DNA of 64,000 nucleotides from an uncultured delta proteobacterium (GCA_963735595.1 CAVTLK010000005.1:103760-167759); one strand, 5' to 3'; shown: positions 23,377-48,107, counted from the first letter of the stretch. Notes: generated by a model from the sequence alone, not told the origin. A program made the numbers and translations.

Positions 23377-23889
23377 ATGCACCGTTTGAAAGTTGTCGTA
23401 ACCGGTCCCTTTAACAGCGGCAAGACTCAATTCATAAAATCGGTCAGCGAAATAGACGTGGTTTCCACCGAAAGAAAGGTGACCCTGCCCGAACACGCGG
23501 CGATCAAGGGAGAAACAACGGTGGCCATGGATTTTGGCCGTATCACCCTGGGTGACCAGAAAGTATACCTCTTCGGGACGCCGGGTCAGCAGCAGTTTGA
23601 CTTTATGTGGGAGGTGCTGACCGAGAATATGATCGGTTTTATCGTCGTCGTGGATTCGACGGACCCCAAGCGGTTTAAGGAGGCCCGGGAGATAATCCGG
23701 TTCTTCAAGGACATCCTCGAAGAACCGTTTGTCGTGGCTGCCAATAAACAGGAGCTTACCGGGGCGCTGCCGGTCACAGAGCTCAGAAAGGAATTAGGGC
23801 TGGACGACAGCTGTGAAATTATCGGCTGCAGCGCCGTCGACAAGAAAAGCTCGGTAAAAGTGCTCGATGCACTCATGAAGTATATGTAA
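23377..23889 (+). CDS. Ras-like small GTPase of the CvnD/MglA-like family (COG2229)
   Basis: P-loop GPFNSGKT, the TTVAMDFGRITL plus LFGTPGQ (G3) block matching Streptomyces conservon CvnD-type GTPases, an NKQE G4-like motif, and SAV (G5), in 170 aa. GGAGG RBS upstream. Confidence 0.8.
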   Translation: MHRLKVVVTGPFNSGKTQFIKSVSEIDVVSTERKVTLPEHAAIKGETTVAMDFGRITLGDQKVYLFGTPGQQQFDFMWEVLTENMIGFIVVVDSTDPKRFKEAREIIRFFKDILEEPFVVAANKQELTGALPVTELRKELGLDDSCEIIGCSAVDKKSSVKVLDALMKYM

Positions 23890-23928: not shown

Positions 23929-24306
23929 GTGGCGACTTATAAAGCGTCTACGCTCAACAAGACCATAACCGATCTGTCGGAAGGGATTCCGGGCATCGAG
24001 GCTATCGTCCTTGAGACATACGAGGGGTTGGTGCTGGCATCTACTCTGCCCACCAGCGCGGAAGAGGAGATCATCGCGGCTATCTCCTCGGCCGCCCAGG
24101 GCATCATCAACCGCGCGGTCAAGGAACTCAAGCAGGGAGACGTTCAAAATACGCTTGTTTTGAGTTCTTCGGGCCAGATAGTCCTGACGGATATAGAGGG
24201 CAAGGCCCTGTTGACCGTTATCGCCAAGCGGGATTCGAATCTGGGCCTCATATCGGTCATGAGCCGGCGCATTGCCAAGGACATCAGAGGCCTCCTGCCG
24301 TTCTGA
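23929..24306 (+). CDS. roadblock/LC7 domain protein (MglB/CvnB-like)
   Basis: 125 aa with the classic roadblock pattern (IPGIEAIVLETYEGLVLAST...GQIVLTDIEGKALLTVIAKRDSNLGLI). Confidence 0.8.
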   Translation: MATYKASTLNKTITDLSEGIPGIEAIVLETYEGLVLASTLPTSAEEEIIAAISSAAQGIINRAVKELKQGDVQNTLVLSSSGQIVLTDIEGKALLTVIAKRDSNLGLISVMSRRIAKDIRGLLPF

Positions 24307-24314: not shown

Positions 24315-25163
24315 ATGATCGAAAGCCGACAAGAAGAGAACATCGTGTTGACACCTGGAACATTCGCCAGGCTGAGGTCGATTCTCAAAGGTGGCGGCAG
24401 CGCCAATCTTAATCTCAATCTCTATAAAGATCCTTATATAGGGCGGCGGATTCAGGTGAGGATGCGCGCGACTCAGGCCGCCACTACCGAAGATTATCTC
24501 GATATAGCGGAAAGAAATCCCGTTGAGTACAAGAAGCTGGTATCTGTCCTGACCATCAACGTCACCCGGTTTTTCAGGAACCAAGAGACGTTCGACAAGA
24601 TCGACCGGCTTGTGATACCGAATATCATCAGGAATCACTATGAACGGGGTGGACGCAGGATAAACGTACTGAGCGTTGGATGTTCCACCGGTGAAGAGCC
24701 TTACAGCGTGGCGATTCTCTTTCTCGATCATCTTCAGAAGACAGGCCAATCGCGCGATCTGAGAGTCCTCGGAACCGATATTGATAAGCGGGCCCTCTTT
24801 CATGCCCTCAAAGGGATATACGATCAGGAGAAGGTGGAAGCAATTCCGAAAGATATCCTCAAACGATACTTCGTCGCGACGAAAAAGGGCTATCAAATAG
24901 CCCCTGACGTGCGAAACAAGGTAATCTTCATCAAAAAAGACGTATTTTCGTATAAAATGTATAACCGATTCGACCTGATACTGGCCAGGAATATACTCAT
25001 CTATTTTGTCAGAAGCTATCAGGAAAAGATCGTGGAAAGCTTCCATCGTCAATTGGTGCGGGGTGGTTTCCTCGTGCTGGGAAGGGCTGAATCGCTGGCC
25101 GGATGCACCAGACAGCTGTTCGAGCCGATAAGCGTTGCGGATCGGATTTATCGCAAAATCTGA
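24315..25163 (+). CDS. cheR: chemotaxis protein methyltransferase CheR
   Basis: The motifs TRFFRN, SVGCSTGEEPYSVAI, LGTDID..AL and ARNILIYF (SAM-dependent MCP methyltransferase). Confidence 0.9.
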   Translation: MIESRQEENIVLTPGTFARLRSILKGGGSANLNLNLYKDPYIGRRIQVRMRATQAATTEDYLDIAERNPVEYKKLVSVLTINVTRFFRNQETFDKIDRLVIPNIIRNHYERGGRRINVLSVGCSTGEEPYSVAILFLDHLQKTGQSRDLRVLGTDIDKRALFHALKGIYDQEKVEAIPKDILKRYFVATKKGYQIAPDVRNKVIFIKKDVFSYKMYNRFDLILARNILIYFVRSYQEKIVESFHRQLVRGGFLVLGRAESLAGCTRQLFEPISVADRIYRKI

Positions 25164-25223
25164 AAATACTATTCCTTTTTGGGAATAATTGGTGTAGTAT
25201 ATGGTGAAAATGGGAGGAGACAG

Positions 25224-26501
25224 ATGAGAATCGAAATCGGGTATAAATTCATCTTTGGATTTATTTTGGTTATCCTCACGTCCGTGATCCTGCCGTATCT
25301 GGTGCGAGCCACCCACCTGGTCGACAATGAGATGATCAGCAATATGATCGCGGCCCTTTCGGCGATACTGGTTGGTTTGATCATCGGGTGGGTTTTCACC
25401 AGGAACTTCACCAAGGACTTCCGGGAATTGACGGCGACTACCGAGATAATCAGCCAGGGTGACCTGAGCCAGTATATAGAAATCTCGCACAAGAAGGTCT
25501 TCCCCGATGAAACGGTCGACCTGGCCAATTCCGTCAATCGAATGCTCGGGAGCCTGCGGGATCTGGTGTCCCATGTTAAACGGACGGCTGCGCAGGTTTC
25601 TGAATCGGCCCAGGGGCTGTCGTCCTCCGCGGAAGAAATAAACGCCTCTACCGAGGAGATCGCCTCCACTATCGAACAGATATCACGAGGGGCCGAGCAC
25701 CAGGCGGAACTCGTCGACAAAACCGGCAACATCATCAAGGACATCGCCAAGAAGATCGAACGGGTTGCCGAGACCGCCAAAGATCTCTCCGCCTCCTCGG
25801 CTCAAAGCCAGGAAGAGGCCGGAACTGCCGGCAAGATGGTGGATAACGCCATGGAGCGGATGCTCACGGTGTTCAATAATATGGAACACATCGGCAAGAA
25901 CATGCTTGATTTCTCCGAAAAGGCCAAGGAGATCGGTAAAATCGTCGAAGTTATCAGAAACGTTGCCCATCAGACCAACCTCCTTGCCCTTAACGCCACG
26001 ATTGAGGCCGCCCGGGCCGGGGAATACGGCCGGGGATTTACCGTTGTTGCCGACGAGATCAGGAAGTTGTCCGAGACGACAACGAAGTTTGCCGAAGAGA
26101 TCACGGGCCTGGTGACCGATATCAGTAAGGGGAGCCAGGAGGCCAACATCGAGGTAAGGGAAGTCCTCAAGAACGTGGATGAAGGCAAGGACGTCATCAA
26201 TTCGGTCGTTCAATCGCTCGGCGGAATAATCAGGGTTGCGCTGGATTCTCTCCATGAACTCAACCGAATATCCCAGCTCGCGATCGAACAGGCAAAAGAA
26301 GCCGAGGAGATGGTCAAAGCGGTCGATGAAATAGCGCGGCTTGCCGAGGACAACGCGGCGGCCACCGAAGAAGTGAGCGCTGCTACTGAAGAACAGACTG
26401 CATCCATGGAAGAGATGGCCTCGTCGGCGCAGGAACTCTCAATGACGTCCGAACAGCTAAAGGCGGTAGTCGATAGCTTCAAGCTGGAACCGGAGGCATA
26501 A
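25224..26501 (+). CDS. methyl-accepting chemotaxis protein with a minimal periplasmic loop
   Basis: Start ATG 25224 preceded by GGGAGGAG. Two TM helices separated by about 14 residues, a HAMP region, and an MCP signalling domain ([33 protein letters not shown]). Confidence 0.9.
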
Positions 26502-26508: not shown

Positions 26509-26985
26509 ATGGGAGACCATGCCGACGGCGTAGGTGCTGAGCGCCAGATAATCGCCTTTGCCCTCTCCCACGAGGTTTTCGGGATAGATATCGCGCGGGT
26601 GCAGCGGATTGCCCCACCCGAGACGATAACACGTGTGCCGCGAGCGCCGGCATTCATATTGGGCATCATGAATATGGCCGGGCGGATCATCACACTGATC
26701 GACCTTGCCCATATCCTGCATCTTGAGAGAGGTGACGAGTTGGGGCAGCAAATCATCATCCTTAACCATGATGACATGAACATAGGCTTTGTTACCGGCC
26801 AGGTTGCCGATGTCATCATGACGGACGATGAATCCCTGAACAGGGAGATCGTACGTATCAGCGCTCAGGATGAGAACTTCGTTTCGGCAATACTGAATAC
26901 AGGCGACCGTATTATCAACGTACTGAACATCGAAAAGCTGTTTGATTTTATAAAAAAATCTTTTGTCGACTCGAGGGGGAAATGA
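26509..26985 (+). CDS. cheW: chemotaxis coupling protein CheW
   Basis: 158-aa CheW-like domain (IIAFALSHEVFGIDIARVQRI...ILGIMNMAGRIITLIDL). Confidence 0.9.
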   Translation: MGDHADGVGAERQIIAFALSHEVFGIDIARVQRIAPPETITRVPRAPAFILGIMNMAGRIITLIDLAHILHLERGDELGQQIIILNHDDMNIGFVTGQVADVIMTDDESLNREIVRISAQDENFVSAILNTGDRIINVLNIEKLFDFIKKSFVDSRGK

Positions 26986-27350
26986 GTCTCAAGGTATTAA
27001 TTGTCGATGATGCGAGTTTTATGAGGGCCATGCTGAAGGACATCCTTGTCTCAGGCGGCTTTGATCTCGCGGGCGAGGCGGTGGACGGTGTCGAAGCGGT
27101 ACAGAAATACAAAGAGCTTAGGCCGGATGTCGTTACTATGGATATAGTAATGCCCCTCAGAAGCGGTATCGACGCCGTCAAGGAGATTATCGCCTTCAAT
27201 AAGGACGCGCGAATCATTATGTGCAGTGCGCTCGGCCAGGAATCCCTCGTTCTGGAGGCCATCAATGCCGGCGCGAAGGACTATATTATAAAACCGTTTG
27301 ACCCGGATAAGGTCGTCGAGATGGTCAAGAAGGTCGCCGGGGTCAAGTAG
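26982..27350 (+). CDS. cheY: response regulator CheY
   Basis: Single REC domain (VLIVDDASFMR...VVTMDIVMP...GAKDYIIKPF). Its start overlaps the cheW stop. Confidence 0.9.
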   Translation: MSLKVLIVDDASFMRAMLKDILVSGGFDLAGEAVDGVEAVQKYKELRPDVVTMDIVMPLRSGIDAVKEIIAFNKDARIIMCSALGQESLVLEAINAGAKDYIIKPFDPDKVVEMVKKVAGVK

Positions 27351-27353: not shown

Positions 27354-27938
27354 ATGGCCGACGCAGTAAAGCTCGTGATTATCGCCGCCTCCACCGGCGG
27401 ACCAAAGATACTGCTGGACGTACTTTCGGCAATTCCTCAGGGTATTCCATCTGCAATTATTGTCATACAACATATGCTCCCGCGCTTTATCGGTTCGTTT
27501 GCAAAGCGTTTGGAAAAAGGTTCACATCTGTCCGTGCAGGTCGGAAGCGACGGGATGAGGCTCGGTAAGGGGACGACTATTTTAGCTCCCGGGGGCAAAC
27601 ATCTCATTTTGGTGCCGGATACGGACGGCGTAATCGTTGGTTTTGACGAATCAGGCCCGAGGGCGGGCGTCATGCCGTCGGCCGACGTTACCATGATTTC
27701 GGCCGCTCCCCTGTTCCGTGGAAACCTCCTGGGCGTTATCCTTTCCGGGATGGGCAGAGACGGGGTCGAGGGATTTGCCGCGATAAAACGCGAGGGTGGT
27801 TCAACGGTCGTTGAAGATGAAGCATCAAGCGCGATTTATGGAATGCCGGGCCGGGCATTGACGCGGGGACTGGCCGACAAGGTCCTTACTCCGCACGAGG
27901 TTGCCCTGGAAATCATCGATTTTTCGTCGAGGATCTAG
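27354..27938 (+). CDS. cheB: protein-glutamate methylesterase, catalytic domain only (CheB without receiver domain)
   Basis: Catalytic triad contexts AASTGGP (Ser), IQHM (His) and GMGRDG (Asp) are present. There is no N-terminal REC domain (194 aa). Confidence 0.85.
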   Translation: MADAVKLVIIAASTGGPKILLDVLSAIPQGIPSAIIVIQHMLPRFIGSFAKRLEKGSHLSVQVGSDGMRLGKGTTILAPGGKHLILVPDTDGVIVGFDESGPRAGVMPSADVTMISAAPLFRGNLLGVILSGMGRDGVEGFAAIKREGGSTVVEDEASSAIYGMPGRALTRGLADKVLTPHEVALEIIDFSSRI

Positions 27939-27941: not shown

Positions 27942-30103
27942 ATGGATATGTCCCGATATAAAAAGATATTCATGGAAGAGGCCCGGGAACACCTCGAGAA
28001 GATCAGCAGCCTCTCCCTGGAGATGGAAAAAAATCCCGAAGATATGGAGGTCATCAACGCCATTTTCCGGGAGGCCCACTCGATCAAGGGGATGGCGGCC
28101 TCGATGGGCTACACCCCGATATCCGAGCTGACCCATAAGGTCGAAGACCTCATGGACCTTATCCGAAAGGGGGAGATCGGCGCCAGTTCCCATCTCGTTG
28201 ACGTGATGCTCAGGGCCATAGACGTCCTGGAGAATCAACTCAACGCGATTGATACCGGCGGTGATACCGAGGCGGGACTTACCGAAGTCCTTGAAATGAT
28301 CGAGCGATCCCGAAAGGGCGACATACCCGAAAAGCAGCCGAAACCCGCACAAAAGCAGCCCCCTGCCGAAGAGAAGGCGCCCCCGGAGGGAAAGAGGATC
28401 AGGCCGCCTATATCGTAACCCTGGTCATACGGGAAGACGAGCCCAAGCCGAACGTCAAGGGCCTGCTGGGGGTTAAGAAGCTTTCAGAACTCGGCAAGGT
28501 CATGGGATTGGTCCCGGGCCTTGAGGAGATCAGGAAAGGATTGAAAGGCCGGGAACTGAAGGCGACACTGGTAACCGGGGTTGGGGAAGACGACGTAATG
28601 CGGGCGTTGAGGGGCTTGGCGTACCTTGCGTCATTTGACGTTATCAAGACAAGCGTCAAAACCGGTGGAGAGAGGGGAAAAGGGGAGCCTGCCAAATCCC
28701 CTATCGGGCCGGAAACCGTTGAATTTCGGCCTCCCCCCGATTCAGGTCCCGTTAATCGGCACGATACGGATATATCCCAGGCGGAGACGGCCGTAGACGA
28801 GCCGCCCGTCGAATGGGTCTCGGAAGAGCTGGCCATCCAGCAAGAGACTGCAGGGGTCAATCCTCCCGCGCAGTCTGTCTCCCCCGGCCGGGAATCATCC
28901 TCCAGTGAAGGACCGCGTGTGGAAGAGATGCTCCCGTCAGGAGAGGCGGGGGCGGGGCTGCCGCGATCGGTCCGTATCGGAACCGACCTCCTGGAGAGCT
29001 TCATTAATATTGTTGGTGAGCTGCTCATCACCAAATCCCGTATCCAACAGCAAACCCGGGGCCTCGCCATCACTCCTCTGGATGAGTCGGTAAACCGGCT
29101 CGAGAGCCTGATTAGAGAGCTCCATACGCGGGTAATCACCGTCAGGATGATGCCGCTGGAAAGCATCCTTTCACGGATGCCCCGCCTCGTGCGAGATCTT
29201 GCCCGGGAGAAAGGTAAGGACATAGAATTTACCATCACCGGCGGTGATATCGAGCTTGACCGCGCGATCCTCGAGGAGCTCACTGACCCGCTGGTTCATA
29301 TCCTGAGAAACGCCGTGGACCACGGGATAGAGCCGCCGAATCAGCGCCAGATGTCCGCGAAATCCCCGACGGGGAAAATCATGTTGTCGGCATACCGCGA
29401 GCGGGACCTCGTAATCCTCGAGGTCACCGACGACGGCCGCGGCATCGACCCGGCGAAGATCAGGGAGGCCGCCGTCCAGCGCGGGATCATGAAAAAGCAG
29501 CAGATCGATCTTCTTGACGACCGGGACGTGTTACTGCTTGCGTTCATGCCGAATCTCTCAACGAATAAGGAGGTCTCGGACATATCGGGACGGGGTGTTG
29601 GGATGGACGTGGTTAAGACCAAGGTAGAGTCCTTGGGCGGCTCGGTACGGCTGGAATCCCGAAAGGACGAGGGTACGAAGATCGTCCTGTCTCTTCCGCT
29701 TACGGTTGCTATCATACAGGCCCTCTTGATCAAGTCGGACGGAGAGACATTTGCCCTGCCCCTTTCAAAGACGATAAAGTCGGCGGAAGTGGCCGCGGCG
29801 TCGGTTCAGATGAGCCAGAATCAGAGGGTAGTCTTCATAGACGGCGATATGATCCCTCTGTTCAAAGTGGGGGATCTTCTGGGGTTTTCCGACGGCAGGA
29901 TTGACGACAGGGATATCTCGCTGATCGTCTCCGAAGTGCGTGGAAAACACATCGGTCTCCAGGTTGACGAAATTGTCGGGAGCCAGGAGATATTTATTAA
30001 GTCTCTCGGCTACCCCCTTGAGAAGATCCAGGGCTTTTCGGGCGTTACGATCCTGGGTGACGGGAAGCCCGTACTAATAATCGATATCGGGAACCTCTTT
30101 TAG
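27942..30103 (+). CDS. cheA: chemotaxis histidine kinase CheA (single gene; apparent split at 28416 caused by a 1-nt deletion in an A-run)
   Basis: HPt/P1 (REAHSIKGMAASMGY), then dimerisation, HATPase (ILRNAVDHGIE, DDGRGID, GRGVGMDVV) and C-terminal CheW-like domains. The P1 frame stops at 28416-28418, but the downstream frame is open from at least 28325 through to the ATG at 28502. Restoring one 'a' in ggaaag (28389-28394) fuses APPEG to KEDQAAYIVTL. Confidence 0.85.
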
Positions 30104-30106: not shown

Positions 30107-30703
30107 ATGGATATAGACTCAATTCTCATCGATAAGAGCAGACTTATAGAAAAGCGTTCTCAGGACGCCCTGATCAGCTCGGCGTTGGCGCTTTCCCAGA
30201 TGACGGGGGAAACGGTCGATGTTGTCAGAACGATCGTCGACCTGATCAAGGTTCAAGAGATAGCGACATACATCGGTGATCGTGACGACAAGGTCACCCT
30301 TATCGCGCTGGACGTTCACGGAAAAATATCGGGAGACATCTACATCCTGCTCTCATCGTCGGACACGATGCTGATCACCAAGAAGGTCGCCGATAGATGG
30401 ATGAAAGAGGAGGAGATAGAGAAATTCAAAAACTCGGTGCTTGCCGAGGTAGGCAACATCGTGGCGTCGGCGTATATTAACGTATTGGGCGATTCGTTCA
30501 ATGTCGCCTTAATACCTTCCGTTCCCCGCCTCGAATTCGTTAGCGGGGAAGCGCTCATCCCCAAGATCCTTTCGAAGGGCGATTCCGATTTCGCACTCAT
30601 GTTCTTCTCGGAATTTGTCGTCGGGGAACGCGGGATTAAGGTCTTCTTCTTTTTCCTTCTGTCCAATGCATCGATGCAGTACCTCGGAGGCCATGCCCCA
30701 TGA
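30107..30703 (+). CDS. CheC/CheX-family CheY-P phosphatase
   Basis: A single E-x2-N...P active-site motif (LAEVGNIVASAYINVLGDSFNVALIPSVP), about 198 aa, positioned after cheA. Confidence 0.65.
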   Translation: MDIDSILIDKSRLIEKRSQDALISSALALSQMTGETVDVVRTIVDLIKVQEIATYIGDRDDKVTLIALDVHGKISGDIYILLSSSDTMLITKKVADRWMKEEEIEKFKNSVLAEVGNIVASAYINVLGDSFNVALIPSVPRLEFVSGEALIPKILSKGDSDFALMFFSEFVVGERGIKVFFFFLLSNASMQYLGGHAP

Positions 30704-31446
30704 ATCAGGAGGCAGTCAAAAATCTCCTGATTGGGGTCAAGAGCGGAGAAGTACCTGTCGAAGAGGCGATCGACAGGCTCAAGTCGTTGCCGTATCTTGA
30801 CCTCGGATTCGCCGTTGTCGATACCCATCGGGCGCTCAGGCAGGGATTCCCCGAGGTTATCATGGGCGAGGGGAAAGAGCCGCGAGATATCCTCGGTATT
30901 ATCGAAAGCCTCAGAAAAACCGGCAATACTATCCTCGTGACCCGCGTAGATACCGAAAAGGCTCGGGTGGTCCGGGAGCAGCTTCCCGAGATGACGTATA
31001 ACGAGCGTGCGCGGTCTCTCGTCCTTATCGAAGGGGAGATCACGATACGGGGAAAGGGGGCGATCATGGTAGTTTCGGCCGGAACCTCCGACATCCCGGT
31101 GGCCGAAGAAGCGGCCGTTGTTTGCGAGCTTATGGGAAACCGCACCGAGCGCCTCTGGGACGTGGGAGTGGCGGGGATACACCGGCTTATGAACCACGTC
31201 GACCGATTACGGGGCGCCAACGTGCTGGTAGTGGCGGCGGGGATGGAGGGGGCGCTGCCGTCGGTTATCGGGGGGATCGTAGAACGCCCGGTGGTGGCTG
31301 TACCCACCAGTGTCGGGTATGGCGCAGGTTTCGGCGGGCTCTCGGCGCTGCTGGGGATGCTCAATTCCTGTGCTGCGGGAGTATGCGTCGTTAATATCGA
31401 TAACGGCTTCGGTGCGGGATACGTTGCTTCCCTGATTAACCGATAA
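30700..31446 (+). CDS. larB: PurE-like AIR-carboxylase-related protein, LarB family (nickel-pincer cofactor biosynthesis)
   Basis: 248 aa with the PurE-like core (MVVSAGTSDIPVAEEAA...VAAGMEGALPSVIGG...AVPTSVGYGAGFGG) typical of the COG1691/LarB family. Its start overlaps the cheC/X stop. Confidence 0.75.
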   Translation: MNQEAVKNLLIGVKSGEVPVEEAIDRLKSLPYLDLGFAVVDTHRALRQGFPEVIMGEGKEPRDILGIIESLRKTGNTILVTRVDTEKARVVREQLPEMTYNERARSLVLIEGEITIRGKGAIMVVSAGTSDIPVAEEAAVVCELMGNRTERLWDVGVAGIHRLMNHVDRLRGANVLVVAAGMEGALPSVIGGIVERPVVAVPTSVGYGAGFGGLSALLGMLNSCAAGVCVVNIDNGFGAGYVASLINR

Positions 31447-31650
31447 TGATACCGTTGTGCCTCGTCGACCATCGGGATTATTATCGCCGGGCTTTGGGAA
31501 GCCCTTGGACTGCCCAATGTTTTGGGAGTGCTGTTTTCATAACTCGCCGGTACCCCGTGAGGGCCGTATCACAAACGGTACATAGGCCCTGTTAGAGAAG
31601 GTCGACCGTTCTCATCCGTTTTGTAGACAAACCGTAGCGCTTCAGGCTGT

Positions 31651-32844
31651 ATGGATACAATTCTCTATATCGATGCCTTCTCGGGCATATCCGGGGACAT
31701 GTTTCTCGGCGCGCTGATCGCCGCAGGACTTGATGCGGCAATCGTCCAGGACGAAATTCGCCGACTGGATATCGGAGCCGAGCTTTCCGTAGGCTTGGTA
31801 AAACGAAACGGGATCGAGGCGGTCAGCGTCTCGGTGATATCCGGTCGAAAAGATGAGGTAGAGCGTCATTACGGAGCGATAAAGAAGCTTATCGAGTCAC
31901 GCATAAACCCGGGTTACGCCCGGGAGACGGCCCTGAAGATATTCGAGTTGCTGGCGCGCGCGGAGGGCCGGGTGCACGGCCGGGATGCCGATCACGTCCA
32001 CTTCCACGAGGTGGGCGCCGTGGATTCGATCGTTGATATCGTCGGCGCCGCGGTGGGCCTGGCGGCGCTCGCGCCGGTTCGGGTGGTTTCCAGCCCGCTT
32101 CCCATGGGAAGGGGCTTTGTTACAACGCGGCACGGCGTGCTCCCGCTGCCGGCCCCGGCGACGGCCGAGCTCCTTGCGGGCATACCCGTAGTCGACGCCG
32201 GGATAGATGAAGAGCTCGTAACTCCGACGGGCGCGGCCATCGTTAAGACGGTCGCATCATCGTTTTCTGGGATACCGCCGATGATCGTCGAGAGATCGGG
32301 TTACGGCGCGGGAGACCGGGAGCTGCCCGACAGGCCCAATCTTCTCAGGCTTATAATCGGAAGGCCCTCAGACCAGACCGTCGGTGACGAGGTGGAAGTC
32401 ATCACAACCCACATAGACGATATGAACCCCCAGTTCTACGAGTATATAATGGATCGGCTTTTTGCCTTAGGGGCCCTTGACGTGGTGTTGGCTCCCGTAA
32501 TCATGAAAAAGGGCAGGCCCGCTACCGCGCTCGTTACCGTTGCCCCCATATCGGGGAGTGGGGAGATTATCGACGCGATCCTTTCCGAGACTACCAGCAT
32601 CGGCCTCCGGATTCACCGGGAGCGCCGGGTTAAGCTCGACCGTCAGCTGGAGACGGTTCAAACGCAATTGGGGGAGATCCGGGTCAAGCTTACGTTCGAC
32701 CGATCGGGAAAGGTTGCCGATGCGTACCCCGAATATGAGGATGTGCGAGCGGCCGCAGAGAGCCACCGCATTCCCATCGATCGGGCATACCGCTTGATTA
32801 TCGGCGAAATCGGCGAGATGTTGGCAAAAAGGGTGAGGAGATGA
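31651..32844 (+). CDS. larC: LarC-family nickel insertion protein (DUF111)
   Basis: N-terminal MDTILYIDAFSGISGDMFLGALI and HFHEVGAVDSIVDIVG motifs diagnostic of DUF111/LarC, in 397 aa. Confidence 0.85.
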   Translation: MDTILYIDAFSGISGDMFLGALIAAGLDAAIVQDEIRRLDIGAELSVGLVKRNGIEAVSVSVISGRKDEVERHYGAIKKLIESRINPGYARETALKIFELLARAEGRVHGRDADHVHFHEVGAVDSIVDIVGAAVGLAALAPVRVVSSPLPMGRGFVTTRHGVLPLPAPATAELLAGIPVVDAGIDEELVTPTGAAIVKTVASSFSGIPPMIVERSGYGAGDRELPDRPNLLRLIIGRPSDQTVGDEVEVITTHIDDMNPQFYEYIMDRLFALGALDVVLAPVIMKKGRPATALVTVAPISGSGEIIDAILSETTSIGLRIHRERRVKLDRQLETVQTQLGEIRVKLTFDRSGKVADAYPEYEDVRAAAESHRIPIDRAYRLIIGEIGEMLAKRVRR

Positions 32845-34334
32845 GCTCGACTATGTTACCACAACAACGGGAAAAGAATAAGGGAGTCATCCTCGTGGTG
32901 GATGACGAGTTTTCCATACGCGAGATATTAAGCGACGTGTTGAGCAACGAAGGATTTACTATATACACGGCGGAAAACGGAATTGAAGCGCTCAAGATAA
33001 TCCAGGAATTGGCCCCCGACCTGGTGATCACCGACATGAAGATGCCGAAGATGGGCGGGATGGAACTCCTGTACCAGATCAATTCCATGAGGAACAGGGT
33101 CATTACGATTATGATGACCGGCTTTGCCACCGTCGAAACGGCGGTGGAGGCCATCAAAAAGGGCGCCTATGACTATATCATGAAGCCCTTCCAGTTCTCC
33201 GATCTTCTCCGGGTGATAGAACATGCCCTCGAAAAGCAGCACCTCATCACAGAAAACCTGGAGCTTAGAGAAACGGTTGCGCTCTATGATATCAGCAAGG
33301 CCATCAGTTCCCACCTTGATATGGAGATCGTGCTCTCGATGCTGCTTTCCACACTCCTGAAGGAGGGAGATGCCGACGCCGTCTCAATGTATATAAAAGA
33401 CATGATCCTTAAGATATCGATCATGAGCAAGACCGTCGCCAAAGAACCCCGATTTGAAAAGGCCGCCGTTACCCTCGTTTCTCCACACGATATGCTGGCA
33501 AAGCTTTCCGGTACCGATTCGCTCATGCTTTCCGGTAGTCAGGCGGCTCAGTTATTTCCTGCGAATGCAGGCTTTGACGATCTGGAGTCGCTCCTGGCGC
33601 TGCCGATTCGAATTAAGGGCGAGACGACGGGCTTTGTATCTCTATTCTCATTCACCCGGGGATATCGGTTCACCGAGGGCCGGAGGAAGGCGCTGTCCAT
33701 CCTGGTGAGCAACGTTTCGGTGGCGGTGGAAAATGCCCGGCTCTATCAGGATATCGTTTCGATTCTTGATGATACCGTAAAGAGCTTCGCCAGAACCCTG
33801 GACGCAAAGGATAAATATGCCTCCGGTCATTCGGAGCGCGTCACCCGCTACGCACTGATTATCGCACGTTCATTAAAGCTTGACAGCGAAGACGTCGACC
33901 GGCTGGCCCAGGCGGGGCTCTTACACGATATTGGGAAGATCGGGGTCAGTGAGCGTTTGCTCAACAAGAAAGATAAGCTCGAGATCGATGAGTACGAGGA
34001 AACCAAACTGCACCCGGTTATCGGCAGAGACATCCTTTCCACGATCGAGAGATTCCAGGATATTGCCGAGATTGTCTATCATCACCACGAATGGTTCGAC
34101 GGTAACGGTTACCCGGAAGGGATTTCCGGAAACGCGATCCCTCTCTTGAGCCGGATCATCGCTGTGGCCGATGCCTTCGATGCGATGACCTCCAGGCGAA
34201 CCTATCGTGAGCAAATCGGAAAGGAACGGGCGCTGGAGGAGCTACGCCGCAATGCCGGCACGCAATTTGATCCGGCGGTCGTGGAGGCGTTGCTCGCAGA
34301 TATACAACAGCTTGACATTGAAGAGGCTCCCTAA
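32841..34334 (+). CDS. response regulator with REC, GAF-like and HD-GYP (c-di-GMP phosphodiesterase) domains
   Basis: REC (ILVVDDEFSIRE...VITDMKMPKMGG...KPF), a central GAF-like region, and HD-GYP (HSERVTRYA...LLHDIGK...HHEWFDGNGYP). Its start overlaps the larC stop. Confidence 0.85.
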   Translation: MSSTMLPQQREKNKGVILVVDDEFSIREILSDVLSNEGFTIYTAENGIEALKIIQELAPDLVITDMKMPKMGGMELLYQINSMRNRVITIMMTGFATVETAVEAIKKGAYDYIMKPFQFSDLLRVIEHALEKQHLITENLELRETVALYDISKAISSHLDMEIVLSMLLSTLLKEGDADAVSMYIKDMILKISIMSKTVAKEPRFEKAAVTLVSPHDMLAKLSGTDSLMLSGSQAAQLFPANAGFDDLESLLALPIRIKGETTGFVSLFSFTRGYRFTEGRRKALSILVSNVSVAVENARLYQDIVSILDDTVKSFARTLDAKDKYASGHSERVTRYALIIARSLKLDSEDVDRLAQAGLLHDIGKIGVSERLLNKKDKLEIDEYEETKLHPVIGRDILSTIERFQDIAEIVYHHHEWFDGNGYPEGISGNAIPLLSRIIAVADAFDAMTSRRTYREQIGKERALEELRRNAGTQFDPAVVEALLADIQQLDIEEAP

Positions 34335-34338
34335 TATA

Positions 34339-34836
34339 ATGACCGGGCAATGGCAAGCTGTTAAAGATCGTCTCATCACGGTTTTCGCAACCGGGTTTGG
34401 TTTAGGGTATCTGCCGCTCGTCCCGGGAACGTTCGGGACGCTCGTCGGTATTCCGATTTGCCTGTTGTTGAGCCTCGGTGGATGGGTTATTTACGTTTCA
34501 GGGACGCTTGCGCTGATTGCGGCGGGTGTCTGGGTGGCGGGCCGGACCGATCGGATCTTTGGGACGCATGATTCCCGGAAGATCGTCATCGACGAAATAT
34601 GCGGTTTCCTGGTCACTATGGCCTTGGTGATCCCGGGACCTCTCACGATCGGGATCGGTTTTGTCGCATTCAGGCTCTTTGACATCCTGAAGCCTTTTCC
34701 GGCGAGCTATTTCGATCGAAGCCTGTCGGGAGGATGGGGGGTGATGCTGGACGATATCGCCGCCGGCGTTTATGCCAACGTGACGCTTCACCTGTCTTTG
34801 GCAATCATCGGCCTCGTGTGGCCGGGGGTTTTGTGA
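34339..34836 (+). CDS. pgpA: phosphatidylglycerophosphatase A
   Basis: 165-aa PgpA family (FGLGYLPLVPGTFGTLVGIP...IVIDEICGF). The ATG lies 4 nt after the preceding stop. Confidence 0.85.
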   Translation: MTGQWQAVKDRLITVFATGFGLGYLPLVPGTFGTLVGIPICLLLSLGGWVIYVSGTLALIAAGVWVAGRTDRIFGTHDSRKIVIDEICGFLVTMALVIPGPLTIGIGFVAFRLFDILKPFPASYFDRSLSGGWGVMLDDIAAGVYANVTLHLSLAIIGLVWPGVL

Positions 34837-36110
34837 AGGGCGAGATCATAACCATAGGAAACGAGCTGTTGTCGGGGCTTGTGGTCGATACCAATCGCTC
34901 CTATATCGCCGGACGTCTGATGACGGCCGGGGTTATGTCTTCCTTTATGACTACCGTCGGCGATGACGAGGACGCGATAGGCGATGCGGTCGGCCGGGCG
35001 GTTTCCCGCGCCGGCGTGGTCGTCATTACCGGCGGGTTGGGCCCCACGCCCGACGATATTACCTCCAAGTGTGTCGCAAAGGCGTTGGAACGGCGGCTCG
35101 TGCTTTCCCCCGAGGCCGAGCAGCAGATACGAGACCGGTACAAGAAGCGCGGGATACCATTGCCGGCGGACGCCGGCCGGCAGGCCCTGATTCCGCAAGG
35201 CGCCCGGGTTATCGTAAACCCGGTCGGGACGGCCCCCGGATACTATCTGGTTATCGGGGAGCGGATCATCGTCGTCCTGCCCGGCGTCCCCGAAGAAATG
35301 CGGGTGATGGTCGATCAGGGTGTGTTGCCGATCCTCGAGACCCAGCGGAATGCCGACTCCTTTATCGTCAGGAGGATTCTCAGGATATTCGGGCTGACCG
35401 AATCGCAGGTCAACGAACGCGTCAGGGAGGTGCCGTACGACAGCCGGCGGATAGCCATCGGTTTCCTGCCGGTATTTCCTGAAAACCACCTGACCATCAC
35501 GGCATGCTCGTCGGTCTCGCGGCAAGAGGCCGAAGAGATCGGCGACAAGACGGCGCGGGCCATGCGGGCGGTTCTTGGCGACCGGGTCTTCGGCCAGGAC
35601 GACCAGACTCTTGAGGCGGTGGTCGGGGGAATGCTCATTAACCGGGGATGCACCGTGGCCGCAGCGGAATCGTGCACCGGCGGGCTACTTTCCCAGCGGC
35701 TTACCGCTATACCGGGCAGCTCTTCGTATTTCCTGCGCGGCGTGGTGACATATAGCAACGATTCAAAGGCGGATCTCCTGGGAGTCGACCCCGCGCTGAT
35801 CAGCGAATTCGGCGCGGTAAGCGATACCGTAGCCTCGGCCATGGCCCGGGGAATTAAGGAGTCTTCGTCGGCCGACCTGGGCATCTCGATTACCGGGATC
35901 GCGGGGCCGTCGGGGGGCACGCGGGAAAAACCGGTCGGAACGGTTTTTATCGGGATGGCCTTTGATGACGAGGGGGCGCTCTCGGTCCGCTCGCACGGCT
36001 ACCGCTTTAACGGGGACCGCGCCAGGATCAGGCTCATTGCCTCGGAAATGGCGCTCGAGTGGATCAGAAGATATCTCATCCGGGGACCGTCCACGAACGG
36101 AGAAATGTAG
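34833..36110 (+). CDS. cinA: competence/damage-inducible protein CinA (MocF/CinA N-terminal plus CinA C-terminal domain)
   Basis: GTG start overlapping the pgpA stop. N-terminal KGEIITIGNELLSGLVVDTN and C-terminal CinA deamidase-type domain (AAESCTGGLLSQRLT...GISITGIAGPSGG). Confidence 0.85.
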   Translation: MKGEIITIGNELLSGLVVDTNRSYIAGRLMTAGVMSSFMTTVGDDEDAIGDAVGRAVSRAGVVVITGGLGPTPDDITSKCVAKALERRLVLSPEAEQQIRDRYKKRGIPLPADAGRQALIPQGARVIVNPVGTAPGYYLVIGERIIVVLPGVPEEMRVMVDQGVLPILETQRNADSFIVRRILRIFGLTESQVNERVREVPYDSRRIAIGFLPVFPENHLTITACSSVSRQEAEEIGDKTARAMRAVLGDRVFGQDDQTLEAVVGGMLINRGCTVAAAESCTGGLLSQRLTAIPGSSSYFLRGVVTYSNDSKADLLGVDPALISEFGAVSDTVASAMARGIKESSSADLGISITGIAGPSGGTREKPVGTVFIGMAFDDEGALSVRSHGYRFNGDRARIRLIASEMALEWIRRYLIRGPSTNGEM

Positions 36111-36117
36111 GATTACC

Positions 36118-36681
36118 GTGTCTGATCTCAGGCTTTTTATTGCCGCCCGCCCCCCCGTTGCGGTGCTTCGGGGGATTATCGACCTCTCGGGGTCGCTCGG
36201 TTTCAGGGGCGACGGGGTCAGGTGGCTCAAGGGCGACGGGATTCACCTGACGCTCAAGTTTCTCGGGAATGCGGACGAGGAGAAAGTGGGGGCAATCGGC
36301 CAGGCCGTTTCGAAGTGCGCCCGTGGTGTGGGAGAGATCAGGCTTGCCGTCGGGGGCGTCGGCGTGTTTCCCGATATGAAACGGGCGCGGGTCATCTGGG
36401 TGGGGCTGACGGGCGATATCGCCCGGCTCGAGTCGGTAAGAAACGCCCTCGAGGAGGGGTGTTTTGCCCTCGGGTTCGATAAGGAGGGGCGCGCCTTTCG
36501 CCCGCACCTGACGATTGCCCGGGTAAAGGACCGGCTCTCGTTTGATACGATTAAGAGAATAGAACAGTCCAGGGATATTATGTTGGGGGATATGGTCGTG
36601 GATGCGATCGAGCTCATCAAAAGCGATCTCTCACCGTCGGGGGCCGCCTATACTACCCTTTCCCACTTTCCGTTAACTTAG
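36118..36681 (+). CDS. thpR: RNA 2',3'-cyclic phosphodiesterase (2'-5' RNA ligase, LigT/ThpR)
   Basis: Two H-x-T-x motifs (HLTLKFLG and HLTIARV) with a GTG start. Confidence 0.8.
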
Positions 36682-36695
36682 CGCCGCGGGGGTAT

Positions 36696-37721
36696 TTGAT
36701 GACTGGTGATGAGAATAAAGAGAAATCATTGAGCCTTGCCCTTTCGCAAATAGAGAAGCAGTTCGGCAAGGGTTCGATCATGAAACTCGGCGACGATGTG
36801 GCCATCCCCGAAATTGCCGTGATCCCCACCGGTTCGTTGGGCCTGGATCTGGCCCTCGGTGTGGGGGGGATCCCCCGCGGCAGGGTCATTGAGATCTACG
36901 GTCCCGAGGCATCGGGGAAGACTACCCTGGCGCTGCACATTATCGCGGAGGCCCAGCGCCTGGGCGGAGTGGCGGCGTTTATCGACGCCGAGCACGCGCT
37001 GGACATCAACTATGCCGGCAACCTCGGCATAAAGACGCAGGAGCTCCTGATCTCCCAGCCCGATACCGGAGAGCAGGCGCTCGAGATCACCGATATCCTG
37101 GTGCGCAGCGGCGCCGTGGATGTCCTGGTTGTCGACTCGGTGGCGGCGCTCGTCCCCCGGGCGGAGATCGAGGGGGAAATGGGGGACTCTCACATGGGCC
37201 TTCAGGCCCGCCTGATGTCTCAGGCGATGCGTAAACTCACCGGGTCAATCTCCAAGTCCAAGACGGCCGTGATTTTCATCAACCAGATCAGGATGAAAAT
37301 AGGGGTGATTTTCGGCAATCCCGAGACGACGACCGGCGGCAATGCCCTGAAGTTCTATTCGAGCGTCAGGCTCGATATCCGCAGGACTGCCGCGCTCAAG
37401 GAAGGCCAGGACGTCGTCGGAAACCGCACAAAGGTAAAGGTCGTGAAAAACAAGATCGCCCCTCCCTTCAAGGAAGTGGAGTTTGATATCATATACGGCC
37501 TGGGGATCTCCAAGGAAGGGGAGCTTGTAGACATGGCCTCCGACGACGGGATAATTGAGAAGAGCGGCACCTGGTACTCGTACGGCGAAGAGCGAATCGG
37601 CCAGGGAAGGGAGAACGCCAAGAGGTTCCTCCTTGAGAATCCGGATACCTGCGCCCAGATCAGAACCAAGGTCATGGAAAAGCACGGATTTATCAGGAAT
37701 CCACAGAAGGATCCGTCATAA
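36696..37721 (+). CDS. recA: recombinase RecA
   Basis: Walker [10 protein letters not shown] and the canonical RecA core ([23 protein letters not shown]). Confidence 0.95.
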
Positions 37722-37731
37722 GAGGTACGCG

Positions 37732-38898
37732 ATGGACATCAACGAAGTATTGAAGATTGCGGTCAAGCAGGGGGCGTCCGATATCCACCTCAAGGTGGGG
37801 CTCCCTCCGGTCTTTCGGATCGATGGATCGCTATATCCCCTCAAGAACGCGCCGCGGCTTACTCCCGACGAAATCGCGAAAATCGCCGAGGGGATCATGA
37901 ATAAGAAGCAGAATGAGCGGTTTCGCGAAATCAACGAGGTCGACCTTGCCTACGGCGTTCCCGGTCTGGGCAGGTTTCGCGTGAACGTATTTCAGCAGCG
38001 GGGGACGATGGGGGTGGTGCTGCGCTCGATCCCGGTCAAGATAAAATCGATTCCGGAGCTCAACCTGCCGACGGTCCTCGAAAAGGTCGCCTCGGAGCCG
38101 CGGGGTCTTATTCTCGTGACCGGGACGACCGGTTCCGGTAAGTCGACCACCCTGGCCTCCATGATCGACCACGTCAACTCGAACCGGACCTGCCACATCA
38201 TCACGATCGAGGACCCGATCGAGTTTCTCCACCGGGACAAAAAAAGCATCATCAACCAGCGGGAGATCGGGTTTGACACCGGGAGCTTTGCCGTGGCGCT
38301 CAAGAGCGCCCTGCGGCAGGACCCGGACGTTATCCTCGTGGGCGAGATGCGGGATTTCGAGACCATCGAGACGGCGCTCACCGCCGCCGAGACCGGCCAC
38401 CTGGTCCTGAGCACCCTGCACACCGTTGACGCCACCGAGACGATCACCCGGATTATCTCCGTGTTTCCCCCCTATCAGCAGCAGCAGATCCGGTTCCAGC
38501 TGGCCGGTATCCTCAAGGGCGTCATCTCCCAGCGGCTTGTCCCCCGGGCGGACGGCAAGGGCCGGGTGCCCGCGGTAGAGGTGCTGATCTCGACCGCCAT
38601 GATCCGGGAGTGCATCTCCGACAAGGACAAGACCAAGGAGATCCACGACGCCATTGCCAAGGGCTTTACCGTCCACGGGATGCAGACCTTTGACCAGTCG
38701 CTCATGTTTCTGTATCGGCGCGCCCTCATCACCTACGACGAAGCGCTCAGGCAGAGCAGCAACCCCGACGACTTCGCGCTCAGGGTCAAGGGGATATCCT
38801 CCACGAGCGACAGTACCTGGGACGCCTTTGACAAGGGGCCGGAGGCAGAGCCCGACGAAGCCGCTCCGGATGAAGAGCTTAATATCGAGAGGTTCTAA
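37732..38898 (+). CDS. pilT: type IV pilus retraction ATPase PilT
   Basis: Start ATG 37732 preceded by AAGAGG. PilT N-terminus (ASDIHLKVGLPPVFRIDGSL), Walker A GTTGSGKST, and PilT signature regions (TIEDPIEF...ILVGEMRD). The 37555 ORF is an upstream over-extension overlapping recA. Confidence 0.9.
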   Translation: MDINEVLKIAVKQGASDIHLKVGLPPVFRIDGSLYPLKNAPRLTPDEIAKIAEGIMNKKQNERFREINEVDLAYGVPGLGRFRVNVFQQRGTMGVVLRSIPVKIKSIPELNLPTVLEKVASEPRGLILVTGTTGSGKSTTLASMIDHVNSNRTCHIITIEDPIEFLHRDKKSIINQREIGFDTGSFAVALKSALRQDPDVILVGEMRDFETIETALTAAETGHLVLSTLHTVDATETITRIISVFPPYQQQQIRFQLAGILKGVISQRLVPRADGKGRVPAVEVLISTAMIRECISDKDKTKEIHDAIAKGFTVHGMQTFDQSLMFLYRRALITYDEALRQSSNPDDFALRVKGISSTSDSTWDAFDKGPEAEPDEAAPDEELNIERF

Positions 38899-39500: not shown

Positions 39501-42131
39501 ATGAAAGGGAGCGAAATTCGCGAAAAGTTCCTCAGCTACTTCGAATCGAAGGGCCACCGCCGGGTGCGCTCGTCTTCCCTCGTGCCCCAGTCGGACCCCA
39601 CGCTGCTGTTTACCAACGCCGGCATGGTCCAGTTCAAGAACGTCTTTACCGGCGACGAAAAACGCGAATACAAGCGCGCCGCCACGTCCCAGAAATGCCT
39701 CCGGGTCAGCGGCAAGCACAACGACCTGGAAAACGTCGGGGTTACGGCGCGCCACCATACCTTCTTCGAGATGCTCGGCAATTTCTCGTTCGGGGACTAT
39801 TTCAAGAAGGACGCGATCATCTTCGGGTGGGAATTCCTCACCAAAGACATGGGACTGCCCAAAGATAAGCTCTGGGCGACGATCTATACCGATGACGATG
39901 AGGCGCACGGCCTCTGGAAGGACGTGATCCATGTGCCGGCAGACCGGATCGTCCGCCTGGGCGAGAAGGACAACTTCTGGGCGATGGGCGAGACCGGGCC
40001 CTGCGGGCCCTGCTCGGAGATCATCATCGACCAGGGCAAAGACATGGCCTGCGGGCCGAACTGCGGAATCGGGACGTGCGATTGCGACCGGTTCCTGGAG
40101 CTCTGGAACCTCGTTTTCATGCAGTTCGTCCGGGACGCATCGGGGCAGATGTCGCCTCTCCCCCGCCCCTCCATCGATACGGGGATGGGTCTGGAGAGGA
40201 TCGCGGCCGTCGTCCAGGGGAAACGCAGCAACTACGATTCCGACCTGTTTCGCCCCATCATCGAGGCAATCGGGCAGATCGCGTCAAACGGGTACGGCAC
40301 CGACCATAAGAAGGATACCTCCATGCGGGCGGTGGCCGACCATGCCCGATCGGCGGCGTTCCTGATTGCCGACGGGGTAATGCCGGCAAACGACGGCAGG
40401 GGCTACGTCCTGCGCCGGATCATGCGCCGGGCGCTGAGGCACGGTAAGCTTCCTGGGCGTGACGGACCCGTTCCTGTTTAAGGTCGCAGACGTCGTCGTG
40501 GACGAGATGGCTCCCGTCTACCCGGAGCTCTCGGAGCACCGGATGTTTATCGCCTCGGTGGTCAAGGCCGAGGAAGAAAAATTCATCGAGACCCTCGACA
40601 AGGGGCTGGTGCTCCTTTCCGAGGAGGTTGCATCAACAAAGAAGCGGGCGGCGGCGTCCTCTCCGGCGAGGTGGCCTTCAAGCTCTATGATACCTTCGGG
40701 TTCCCGCTTGATTTGACGCAGGACATCATCAAGGACGAGGGAATCGGGGTGGATATCGCAGGCTTCGAGGCGGCGATGGGCGTGCAGCGGGAAAAAAGCA
40801 AGGCCGCGTGGAAGGGATCGGGCGATGAACAGGTGGCCGGGGTCTACCTGAAGCTGGCCGCCGACGGGATATCGTCCGAATTTATCGGCTACGAGTCGAC
40901 GAGCGCACAGTCGAAGGTTACGGCCGTCGTCTCGGCGGCGCGGCGGTGAAAGCCGGTTCGCCCGGCGATGAGGTCGAGATCGTGACCGAGAAGACCCCGT
41001 TTTACGGAGAGATGGGGGGCCAGGTGGGAGACACCGGCACGATAACGGCCGACGGCCTGCTCGTCGAGGTTACCGACTCCGCACGGCCGTCCGACCACAT
41101 CATCGCCCACCGGGGGGTGATAAAAAAGGGCAAGATCGCCGTCGGTGATTCCGTGACACTTACCGTCAACGACGGGCCGCGCCGGATGACCGAGGCAAAC
41201 CACAGCGCCACCCACCTGCTTCACGCGGCGCTCAAGGCGGTCCTGGGCGAGCACGTCAAGCAGGCCGGGTCTCTCGTCAGCCCGGAGCGGCTGCGGTTTG
41301 ACTACAGCCATTTCGGGCAGGTCAAGAAGGGCGAGCTGGAGCGGGTCGAGGATATCGTCAACGAGCGTATCCGGGAGGACCACGAGGTCGTGGCGCGGGA
41401 ACTGGCCGTACGACGCGGCCATCGCCGAGGGCGCCACGGCGCTCTTCGGCGAAAAATACGGCGACGTGGTCAGGATGGTCAAGGTACCGGGCGTTTCGAT
41501 GGAGCTCTGCGGAGGGACGCATACCGACAGGACCGGCAAGATCGGCGTCTTCAAAATCGTCCACGAGGGCTCGATCGCCTCGGGCGTCCGCCGTATCGAG
41601 GCGGTGACCGGGGTCGGCGCGCTGGCGCATCTCAGGCGCGAGGAACAGATCCTTTCCGACATCGCGGAGGTGCTCAAGAGCACGCCGGAGGAGGCGCCGG
41701 CCAGGGTCGAGAAGCTCGCCGCTCAGGTCAAGGCGCTGACCAGGGAGATCGAGCGGATCAAGAGCGGGGGGGGGGTCGTCTCGGTGGAGAGCGTCGTCAA
41801 GGGCGCAAAAGAGAAGGCGGGGATTTTTGTCGTCTCCGAGGTCATCCCGGACATGGACCCCAAGTCGCTGAGGGACTTTTCGGACAAGGTCAGGGACCGG
41901 ATGAACAAGGCCGTCATCGCCCTGGGGTCGGTCTCCGAAGACAAGGCGGTGCTCCTGGTGACCGTCACCAAAGATATCGCCGATAAATACCACGCCGGCA
42001 ACATCATCCGGGGTATGGCCGAGGTCGTGGGCGGCAAGGGCGGCGGCAGGCCCGACTTTGCCCAGGCGGGGGGGCCGGACGCGGGGAAGATCGACGCGGC
42101 GGTCCAGAAGGTATTTGAGTACGTGAAGTAG
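39501..42131 (+). CDS. alaS: alanine--tRNA ligase, interrupted by four 1-nt homopolymer indels (reads through as one ~875-aa protein once corrected)
   Basis: N-terminus [19 protein letters not shown]...FTNAGM, editing domain ([11 protein letters not shown]), and C-terminal DHHA1 ([15 protein letters not shown]). Frame breaks fall at about 40455 (cttcctggg), 40645 (gaagcgggcgg), 40949 and 41400 (ctggccg). Confidence 0.9.
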
Positions 42132-48062: not shown

Positions 48063-48107
48063 AAGTTTATCGCCGCTTCTCCCCGGGGACCTTCCGGGGA
48101 TCTCCGA

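Follow-up and report, generated by a model that had tools for sequence, protein, structure and literature searches.

In Lactiplantibacillus plantarum, larA, the gene for lactate racemase, lies in operons with larB, larC and larE, and LarB, LarE and LarC make up the pathway to the cofactor nickel-pincer nucleotide (NPN). Of the genomes surveyed, about 15 % carry larB, larC and larE but lack larA, which implies further, unrecognized NPN users (PMC11796402). New NPN enzymes, for example NphT of the aldo-keto reductase (AKR) fold, have been found by mining lar neighbourhoods in a search that required larB and larE within 20 open reading frames (ORFs) of larC and focused on oxidoreductases; chemotaxis and response regulators are mentioned nowhere in that work (PMC13524815). 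Described here is a 64,000-nucleotide stretch from an uncultured delta proteobacterium (GCA_963735595.1 CAVTLK010000005.1:103760-167759), hereafter called the window, in which larB and larC follow a set of chemosensory (che) genes. Their products are clear orthologues of the L. plantarum proteins, with full-length structure matches. The window differs from the L. plantarum operons in that neither larA nor larE occurs in its 64 kb and in that the lar genes stand at the 3' end of a chemosensory array, not in a metabolic cluster. As in the mining that led to NphT, constant lar neighbours are regarded as candidate NPN users, but in this case the neighbours belong to signal transduction and larE is lacking; such loci would have been excluded by the published filter because it demands larE near larC.

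Several described chemosensory systems resemble parts of this locus. The Wsp system of Pseudomonas is a che-like pathway that controls cyclic di-GMP (c-di-GMP) through the REC-GGDEF protein WspR, and the window likewise has a che-like cluster, with no flagellar genes near, that adjoins a REC-domain c-di-GMP enzyme. The output domain in the window is, however, an HD-GYP phosphodiesterase and not a GGDEF cyclase, and no GGDEF domain occurs in the cluster. CheA contains only Hpt, dimerisation, HATPase and CheW domains, without the REC domain of a CheA-REC hybrid; a CheC/X protein and MglA/MglB-like genes are present instead; and orthologues of the regulator pair with a classical kinase elsewhere. 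The label "Wsp-like" suggested for the pathway in an initial annotation of the window, made from the sequence alone, is thus not upheld. A che cluster beside genes for a Ras-like GTPase and a Roadblock protein, as seen in the window and in two related loci (L001 and L162), recalls Frz and MglA/MglB of Myxococcus xanthus, although neither a cytoplasmic receptor of the FrzCD type nor a dual-REC protein of the FrzZ type was seen, and no lar genes are known from Frz. The Che7 chemosensory cluster of M. xanthus carries the desaturase Des7 and is a precedent for non-signalling enzymes as integral members of a che operon; the enzymes in the window differ in belonging to a metallocofactor pathway. Full-text searches of the literature turned up no description of lar genes within a che cluster. 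All of the parts belong to known families, and it is their conserved combination that appears to be undescribed.

A family of lar-linked chemosensory clusters

The + strand of the window from 23.4 to 42 kb forms a single co-directional array of closely spaced genes in the order mglA-mglB-cheR-mcp-cheW-cheY-cheB-cheA-cheC/X-larB-larC-response regulator-pgpA-cinA-thpR-recA, continued beyond recA by genes for a PilT-like ATPase, recX and alaS (Table 1). The initial annotation had larB and larC embedded in the che genes, with the start of larB overlapping the cheC/X stop. Both statements are borne out by the common strand, the close spacing and an ATGA overlap at 30700-30703, exactly where it had been placed; the other elements named in that annotation likewise sit at the positions given.

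Related loci were collected in two surveys. In the first, LarB was used to scan one genome per species, and the 80 best loci, with 54-70 % LarB identity to the window, were compared. The closest LarB among them (L001, an uncultured Thermodesulfobacteriota, 70 %) comes from a locus that keeps the whole dinG-to-recA synteny. Che genes, including at least cheA, lie directly upstream of larB in six of the 80 loci (L001, L002, L012, L059, L063 and L077), and the che/lar loci of this survey range from 42 to 72 % GC. Their outer flanks differ: lon-thiL lies upstream in several, while L063 has a PocR histidine kinase and a response regulator upstream and glgB downstream. A REC protein stays beside larB and larC in two loci where cheA is absent. 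One of these, L056 (1-3904), reads lon-thiL-cheY-larB-larC; its lone CheY is 41 % identical to that of the window, no other che gene is present, and the locus looks like a reduced form of a lar-linked cluster. In the other, L008, CNNM transporter genes stand upstream and larB-larC is followed by an orthologue of the HD-GYP response regulator, again without che genes. A search for a cultured carrier with published data found none, as no isolate is among the sources of the che-lar loci; Deferrisoma camini has only the block of response regulator, pgpA and recA at this locus.

The second survey was not conditioned on lar genes. Metagenome contigs were scanned with a CheY alignment, and the best 80 (58-99 % identity) included 33 with enough DNA downstream of cheA/cheX to be assessed. 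A lar gene directly follows the che genes in 14 of these 33 contigs. Thirteen continue cheA-(cheX)-(cheD)-larB(-larC), and one (L105) continues with cheX-larE and then a regulator of REC-GAF-GAF-HD-GYP architecture, its LarE scoring 352.7 bits with TIGR00268 (cutoff 150). The larE arrangement recurs in another sample at 75 % LarE identity (L168 and L169), and also in L170 and L171. About 13 of the 33 continue with genes for a large TPR protein, a PATAN(DUF4388)-TPR protein, two Roadblock proteins and a Ras-like GTPase, and the remaining six with other genes.

On a neighbour-joining tree of the P3-P5 region of CheA, the clusters of the TPR/PATAN/MglAB type form one clade. The remaining CheA proteins are lar-linked in 14 of 16 cases among the CheY-found loci, which are the unbiased subset, and in 25 of 27 over all sources. 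Identity to the window ranges over approximately 35-45 % for CheA across the lar-linked clade, and over 55-75 % for CheY of other lar-linked clusters. In the sister clade (L111, L113, L115, L129, L145, L150 and L156-L159), a conserved set of genes downstream of cheX encodes a TPR protein of about 900 amino acids, a PATAN(DUF4388)-TPR protein, a TPR-Roadblock protein, a Roadblock protein and a Ras-like GTPase, and no MCP gene (for a methyl-accepting chemotaxis protein) is detectable nearby. The set looks like a module for chemosensing that is wired to a switch of the MglA/MglB type, and it is reminiscent of the PATAN-domain regulators of type IV pilus motility.

The junction between the last che gene and larB is tight, with a gap of -20 to +26 nucleotides in 14 of 19 lar-linked loci, in hosts that range from 31 to 75 % GC, and every other LarB or LarC protein from a che-linked locus that was tested scores above the NCBIfam equivalog cutoffs. 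The upstream neighbour of the unit is thiL in about half of the loci, and in at least eight lar-linked loci thiL is found immediately upstream of the che module; elsewhere the neighbour is mglB, a histidine kinase-response regulator pair or a CNNM gene. Downstream of larC, nearly every locus has a different neighbour: a response regulator, grpE-dnaK, glgB, or a gene for a metallo-beta-lactamase (MBL)-fold protein, a histidine kinase or a histone-fold protein. Because thiL is upstream in only about half of the cases and the gene after larC varies, the che/lar junction is conserved much better than the outer junctions. A recurrent gene after larC was also considered as a possible NPN user and rejected, as these neighbours differ in nearly every related locus. 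Chance adjacency, the objection raised in the initial annotation itself, fails in view of che-larB(-larC) arrangements in many divergent loci. Judged from gene order, the adjacency of the che genes with larB and larC is not due to chance, and the window is a representative of a widespread, deep family of lar-linked chemosensory operons.

Two further features were observed around these clusters. One or two genes for CNNM/CorC-type (CBS-domain) divalent-cation transporters repeatedly adjoin the lar genes or the lar-linked che cluster (L008, 7307-9939; L168, 619-3182; L170, 872-3435; L022, L026 and L029, approximately 8716-9987), and these neighbours may relate to metal supply or homeostasis. In two low-GC members, L090 (31 % GC) and L152 (40 % GC), a rhomboid-like membrane protein of about 225 amino acids is encoded between larB and larC (11907-12584 and 12208-12891, respectively), and cheD lies between cheX and larB.

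The Lar enzymes, the HD-GYP regulator and the che proteins

The 248-residue product of larB scored 294.3 bits with the NCBIfam LarB model NF033503 (cutoff 175). Its identity as PurE, named in the initial annotation as the assignment that would overturn LarB, was rejected, with only 30.9 bits for the purE model TIGR01162 (cutoff 149.6). Residues 9-248 align end to end with residues 7-245 of L. plantarum LarB (PDB 7MJ0; E 4.8e-71), so that both the N-terminal region and the PurE-like domain are covered. The window motif MLNSCAAG pairs with MLNSCASG of 7MJ0, so that the cysteine of the NSC motif, equivalent to Cys221, is conserved. In the work on 7MJ0, Cys221 is reported to be the catalytic cysteine. 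The assignment of LarC, of 397 residues, was confirmed in the same way: both domains are present in one polypeptide (LarC1, TIGR00299, 206.1 bits against a cutoff of 90; LarC2, NF052512, 127.1 against 50), Pfam Ni_insertion matches with 441 bits, and residues 4-383 align with residues 21-404 of the full-length LarC structure 12bi (E 3.8e-89). On these comparisons, larB and larC most likely encode ordinary, catalytically intact enzymes of NPN biosynthesis, LarB being predicted to carboxylate and hydrolyse nicotinic acid adenine dinucleotide (NaAD).

The absence of larE and larA from the window, also part of the initial annotation, was corroborated. When six LarE sequences were compared with the 64 kb by tblastn, no match was better than E 0.4, and no LarE or LarA was found in a Pfam scan of candidate ORFs of the window, the other ORFs being judged by eye only. 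The NPN pathway of LarB, LarE and LarC is therefore incomplete within the window and may be complete in trans.

The larB-larC spacer, 205 nucleotides long in the window, was considered as the site of a riboswitch or other RNA element, for example a NiCo riboswitch. This was rejected because the spacer has no Rfam match at gathering thresholds, is not conserved in comparison with L001, has no stable fold (z-score -0.18, with only a weak 5-bp hairpin at 31513-31526) and is only 34 nucleotides long in L162. At the other end of larC, the proposed overlap with the start of the response regulator gene depends on the choice of start codon. The overlap (ATGA, 32841-32844) exists only with the first ATG of the regulator, which has a GGTGAGGAG Shine-Dalgarno sequence just upstream. 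In the gene calls of near-identical contigs, the ATG is placed 12 nucleotides further downstream, 8 nucleotides past the larC stop, and the overlap is then lost.

The response regulator retains all of the expected REC residues: D21 and D22 of the acidic pocket, the phospho-acceptor D65, T93 and K115. Its phosphodiesterase domain has HDIGK at position 362 and HHEWFDGNGYP at 415, and matches HD_5 with 150.5 bits. Between these domains, the match to GAF_2 (22.5 bits) is below the 28.6 cutoff and covers residues 238-297 only; homologues with significant GAF matches align over 95 % of the regulator. A phospho-acceptor aspartate in REC followed by HD and HHExxDGxGYP motifs is also the pattern of RpfG-type REC-HD-GYP proteins, and homologues of the regulator are named "RpfG family c-di-GMP phosphodiesterase" by the Joint Genome Institute (JGI). 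The window regulator differs from RpfG in its intervening degenerate GAF domain and in its neighbours, which are larC and pgpA with no adjacent RpfC-like hybrid kinase.

Close homologues of the regulator (60-90 %) all come from the lineage of the window, for example L162 (GCA_016931225.1), where the regulator is 63 % identical and the synteny is the same. The next orthologues (44-47 %) are those of L008, where the gene follows larB-larC, of Deferrisoma camini and of one relative. In D. camini and its relative, the gene lies between a PAS histidine kinase and pgpA-cinA-thpR-recA-pilT-alaS, without che or lar genes. Three further homologues (41-46 %) occur in unrelated contexts. Because its orthologues adjoin the pgpA-recA block and an ordinary kinase without che or lar, the regulator is, by these gene-order comparisons, a member of that block by descent. 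A general linkage of the regulator family to lar genes was rejected as well; of the contexts sampled at 41-47 % identity, lar genes were found only in L008. Lar genes followed by an HD-GYP regulator are nevertheless seen in three types of arrangement (the window with L001 and L162; L008; and L105 with L168-L171), and the independent order che-larE-REC-GAF-GAF-HD-GYP shows that the che family can be wired to regulators of this kind. Most che-larBC loci are without one. The proposal that the HD-GYP protein is the terminal output of the che operon is thus weakened, both by this and by the orthologues beside the PAS kinase. In the lineage of the window, the PAS kinase is absent and CheA would be the obvious candidate phosphodonor.

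Some of the che genes required correction or comment. The MCP combines a pair of hydrophobic segments at the N terminus with HAMP and signalling domains and has no separate sensor domain; alignment with five orthologues places its true start probably about 57 nucleotides downstream of 25179. CheA is a single protein of 720 residues in a near-identical Logan contig and of 693 residues in L162, and a second near-identical contig shares the two ORFs, in different frames, that are seen in the window. They probably reflect an indel error or a variant in the population and not a real two-gene CheA. The CheC/X protein scores 55 bits with the NCBIfam CheC model, below its cutoff, and the L059 and L077 orthologues match both CheC and CheX. 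The MglA/MglB-type partners, in the window and in the sister clade, probably point to cell polarity or surface motility rather than to flagella.

The surroundings of the cluster in the window

Table 1. Features of the mglA-recA array and its upstream border in the window (coordinates counted from its first nucleotide).
Feature	Position	Strand	Basis or remark
dinG-like helicase	21153-23126	+	250-nt gap, then MglA-like gene
MglA-like small Ras/Arf-like GTPase	23377-23889	+	Pfam Arf, Ras, ATP_bind_1; same position in L001 and L162
Roadblock/LC7 protein (MglB-like)	23929-24306	+	Pfam Robl_LC7, 53 bits
CheR methyltransferase	24315-25163	+	Pfam CheR, 178.7 bits, and CheR_N
MCP	25179-26501	+	Pfam MCPsignal, HAMP
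CheW	26509-26985	+	Pfam CheW, 98 bits
CheY, single-domain response regulator	26982-27350	+	Pfam Response_reg
CheB, methylesterase domain only, without REC	27354-27938	+	Pfam CheB_methylest, 175 bits, residues 8-187 of 194
CheA, two ORFs (Hpt, 27942-28418; P3-P5, 28502-30103)	27942-30103	+	Pfam Hpt; H-kinase_dim, HATPase_c, CheW
CheC/CheX-family protein	30107-30703	+	Pfam CheC, 26.1 bits (cutoff 22)
LarB (pyridinium-3,5-biscarboxylic acid mononucleotide synthase)	30700-31446	+	NF033503; PDB 7MJ0
larB-larC spacer, without recognisable element	31447-31650	+	Rfam, comparison, fold
LarC (CTP-dependent nickel insertase/cyclometallase), full length	31651-32844	+	LarC1, LarC2, Ni_insertion; PDB 12bi
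Response regulator, REC-(degenerate GAF)-HD-GYP, c-di-GMP phosphodiesterase type	32841-34334	+	Pfam Response_reg, HD_5, HD
Housekeeping block pgpA-cinA-thpR(LigT)-recA	34339-37721	+	Pfam, NCBIfam; context only, not counted in the signalling unit

The array does not visibly end at the regulator, where the initial annotation had closed the unit: the pgpA ATG at 34339 is 4 nucleotides past the regulator stop, and cinA overlaps pgpA. A scan of the cluster for sigma-54 promoters gave matches no commoner than in shuffled sequence, and a scan for sigma-70 promoters and terminators found none that was convincing within the stretch from the che genes through lar to the regulator. A perfect match to the sigma-70 consensus (12 of 12 positions, TTGACA-17 nt-TATAAT) spans the regulator stop at 34312-34340; some 0.005 matches of this quality would be expected, on a rough estimate, over the 14 kb scanned. 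Its -10 box includes the pgpA ATG and the transcript would begin inside pgpA, and its role is doubtful because of this overlap with the start codon.

Farther downstream, a gene for a PilT/T2SSE-type ATPase lies between recA and recX/alaS (37555-38898 in the window, 14367-15509 in L161 and 15015-16196 in L162). Its fixed place near recA in the window, L162 and Deferrisoma camini is unusual; the start of the ORF as listed overlaps recA and is probably placed too far upstream. The essential gene alaS (39501-41986) is broken into at least three ORFs in the window (39501-40481, 40671-40949 and 40946-41986) with a garbled C-terminal translation. In L162 and Deferrisoma it is one gene of 876-883 codons, which suggests indel errors in the source assembly of the window.

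Elsewhere in the window, an ORF of 385 codons on the - strand (19877-21034) lies directly upstream of the dinG-like gene and is divergent from it; its product has a hydrophobic segment at the N terminus and matches no Pfam family. A full-length 6S RNA (SsrS; Rfam RF00013, 105.9 bits) is encoded on the + strand at 8473-8655, between ftsY and the RNase Y gene, and the sole tRNA of the window is a tRNA-Arg (anticodon TCG) at 56891-56964. The longest ORFs at 47757-49709 and 50502-52646 on the + strand are spurious antisense frames in a stretch of 63-65 % GC; the real genes there, on the - strand, are tsaE, the gene for the NAD(P)H-hydrate repair enzyme (YjeF), acpS, a glmM-like phosphoglucosamine mutase gene, folP and ftsH.

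Possible reasons for the che/lar junction

The explanation favoured here is that larB and larC became fixed as the distal genes of an ancient operon family of the form mcp-cheW-cheY-[cheB]-cheA-cheC/X-[cheD]-larB-larC. Most likely the lar and che genes share a transcript, and in many members of the family their translation would be coupled as well. Production of NPN would thereby be tied to expression of the signalling pathway, with LarE supplied from elsewhere in the genome. Selection would have preserved the che/lar junction while its flanks were reshuffled, which argues that the pathway depends on, or is coordinated with, an NPN-dependent protein other than LarA. In the lineage of the window, CheA may in addition phosphorylate the REC-GAF-HD-GYP regulator and so lower c-di-GMP. 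That the function of the pathway is coordinated with NPN or needs it, with LarE encoded elsewhere and a user other than LarA, is considered fairly probable.

Several observations weigh against this explanation. The clusters hold no candidate NPN-binding protein, and nearly all of them lack larE. Two loci, L087 and L088, have CheA proteins of the lar-linked clade but no lar genes. The CheA tree carries no support values, and the metagenome contigs carry no taxonomy, so the loci counted above cannot be taken as independent lineages. The mglA-to-alaS array of the window also holds clearly unrelated housekeeping genes that likewise abut or overlap, and for this reason the ATGA overlaps are by themselves weak evidence for functional coupling. 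In about 10 relatives without che genes, larB directly follows thiL in a grpE-dnaK-dnaJ-lon-thiL-larB block.

Much of the pattern could be accounted for by neutral inherited synteny. A che module would have entered a housekeeping region of slow rearrangement (dinG ... grpE-dnaK-dnaJ-lon-thiL-larB-larC ... pgpA-cinA-recA) a single time, long ago, at a site next to larB; larB and larC would ride on a passing transcript, and NPN would serve an unrelated enzyme. A single old insertion followed by vertical descent is a serious rival because thiL-larB exists without che genes and because thiL flanks the che module in the lar-linked loci noted above, as if the module had been inserted between thiL and larB. 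The Deferrimicrobiaceae, moreover, have a dinG...CNNM-larB-larC block, the region in the window is a long co-directional array of unrelated functions, and the lar-linked CheA proteins are compatible with a single origin. Neutral descent does not readily explain, however, why the junction should be kept in nearly all members of the unbiased clade, across the full range of host GC and at such low CheA identities, while the outer junctions were broken repeatedly. Nor does it account well for larE in the same slot in another sub-lineage, or for a CheY or HD-GYP regulator that stays beside larB and larC in loci devoid of the remaining che genes. Neutral synteny is regarded as less likely than the favoured explanation, although it is taken seriously.

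A direct signalling role, in which NPN or a Lar intermediate (pyridinium-3,5-biscarboxylic acid mononucleotide, P2CMN, or its bisthiocarboxylic counterpart, P2TMN) is a cofactor or ligand of a pathway component, draws on the same conservation data as the favoured explanation. Candidates would be the sensor-less MCP, in which no ligand-binding domain is recognisable, the CheC/X-like protein and, in the HD-GYP regulator, the GAF domain. Lar genes have REC-domain proteins beside them in all variants, even in L056 and L008, which lack cheA; GAF-HD-GYP regulators come after lar genes in the three arrangements given above; and NPN users other than LarA are known. Against this, no che protein shows a sequence or structural sign of an NPN site, most lar-linked clusters have no HD-GYP regulator, and in the lineage of the window the GAF domain is degenerate. 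In Deferrisoma, the orthologues of the regulator are partnered by an ordinary histidine kinase and have no lar genes near, and larE is usually outside the cluster. A direct role is on balance rather improbable, and the role suggested for LarB and LarC in the initial annotation, through a nickel- or NAD-derived signal, is speculation. If a direct role were true, this would be the first signal-transduction pathway dependent on the nickel-pincer cofactor; nickel, NaAD or redox status would be linked to motility or polarity and to c-di-GMP, and one of the missing non-LarA NPN proteins would be identified.

The result of note is the family of lar-linked chemosensory operons and not the single locus. 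For NPN biology, a che family that ends in larB-larC or larE is a testable lead to a non-enzymatic or regulatory use of the cofactor. For the study of chemotaxis, it is a che subfamily defined by a constant accessory module of metabolic genes and by a sensor-less receptor. Even if only co-expression is involved, the arrangement still shows which physiological programme NPN serves in these uncultured bacteria.

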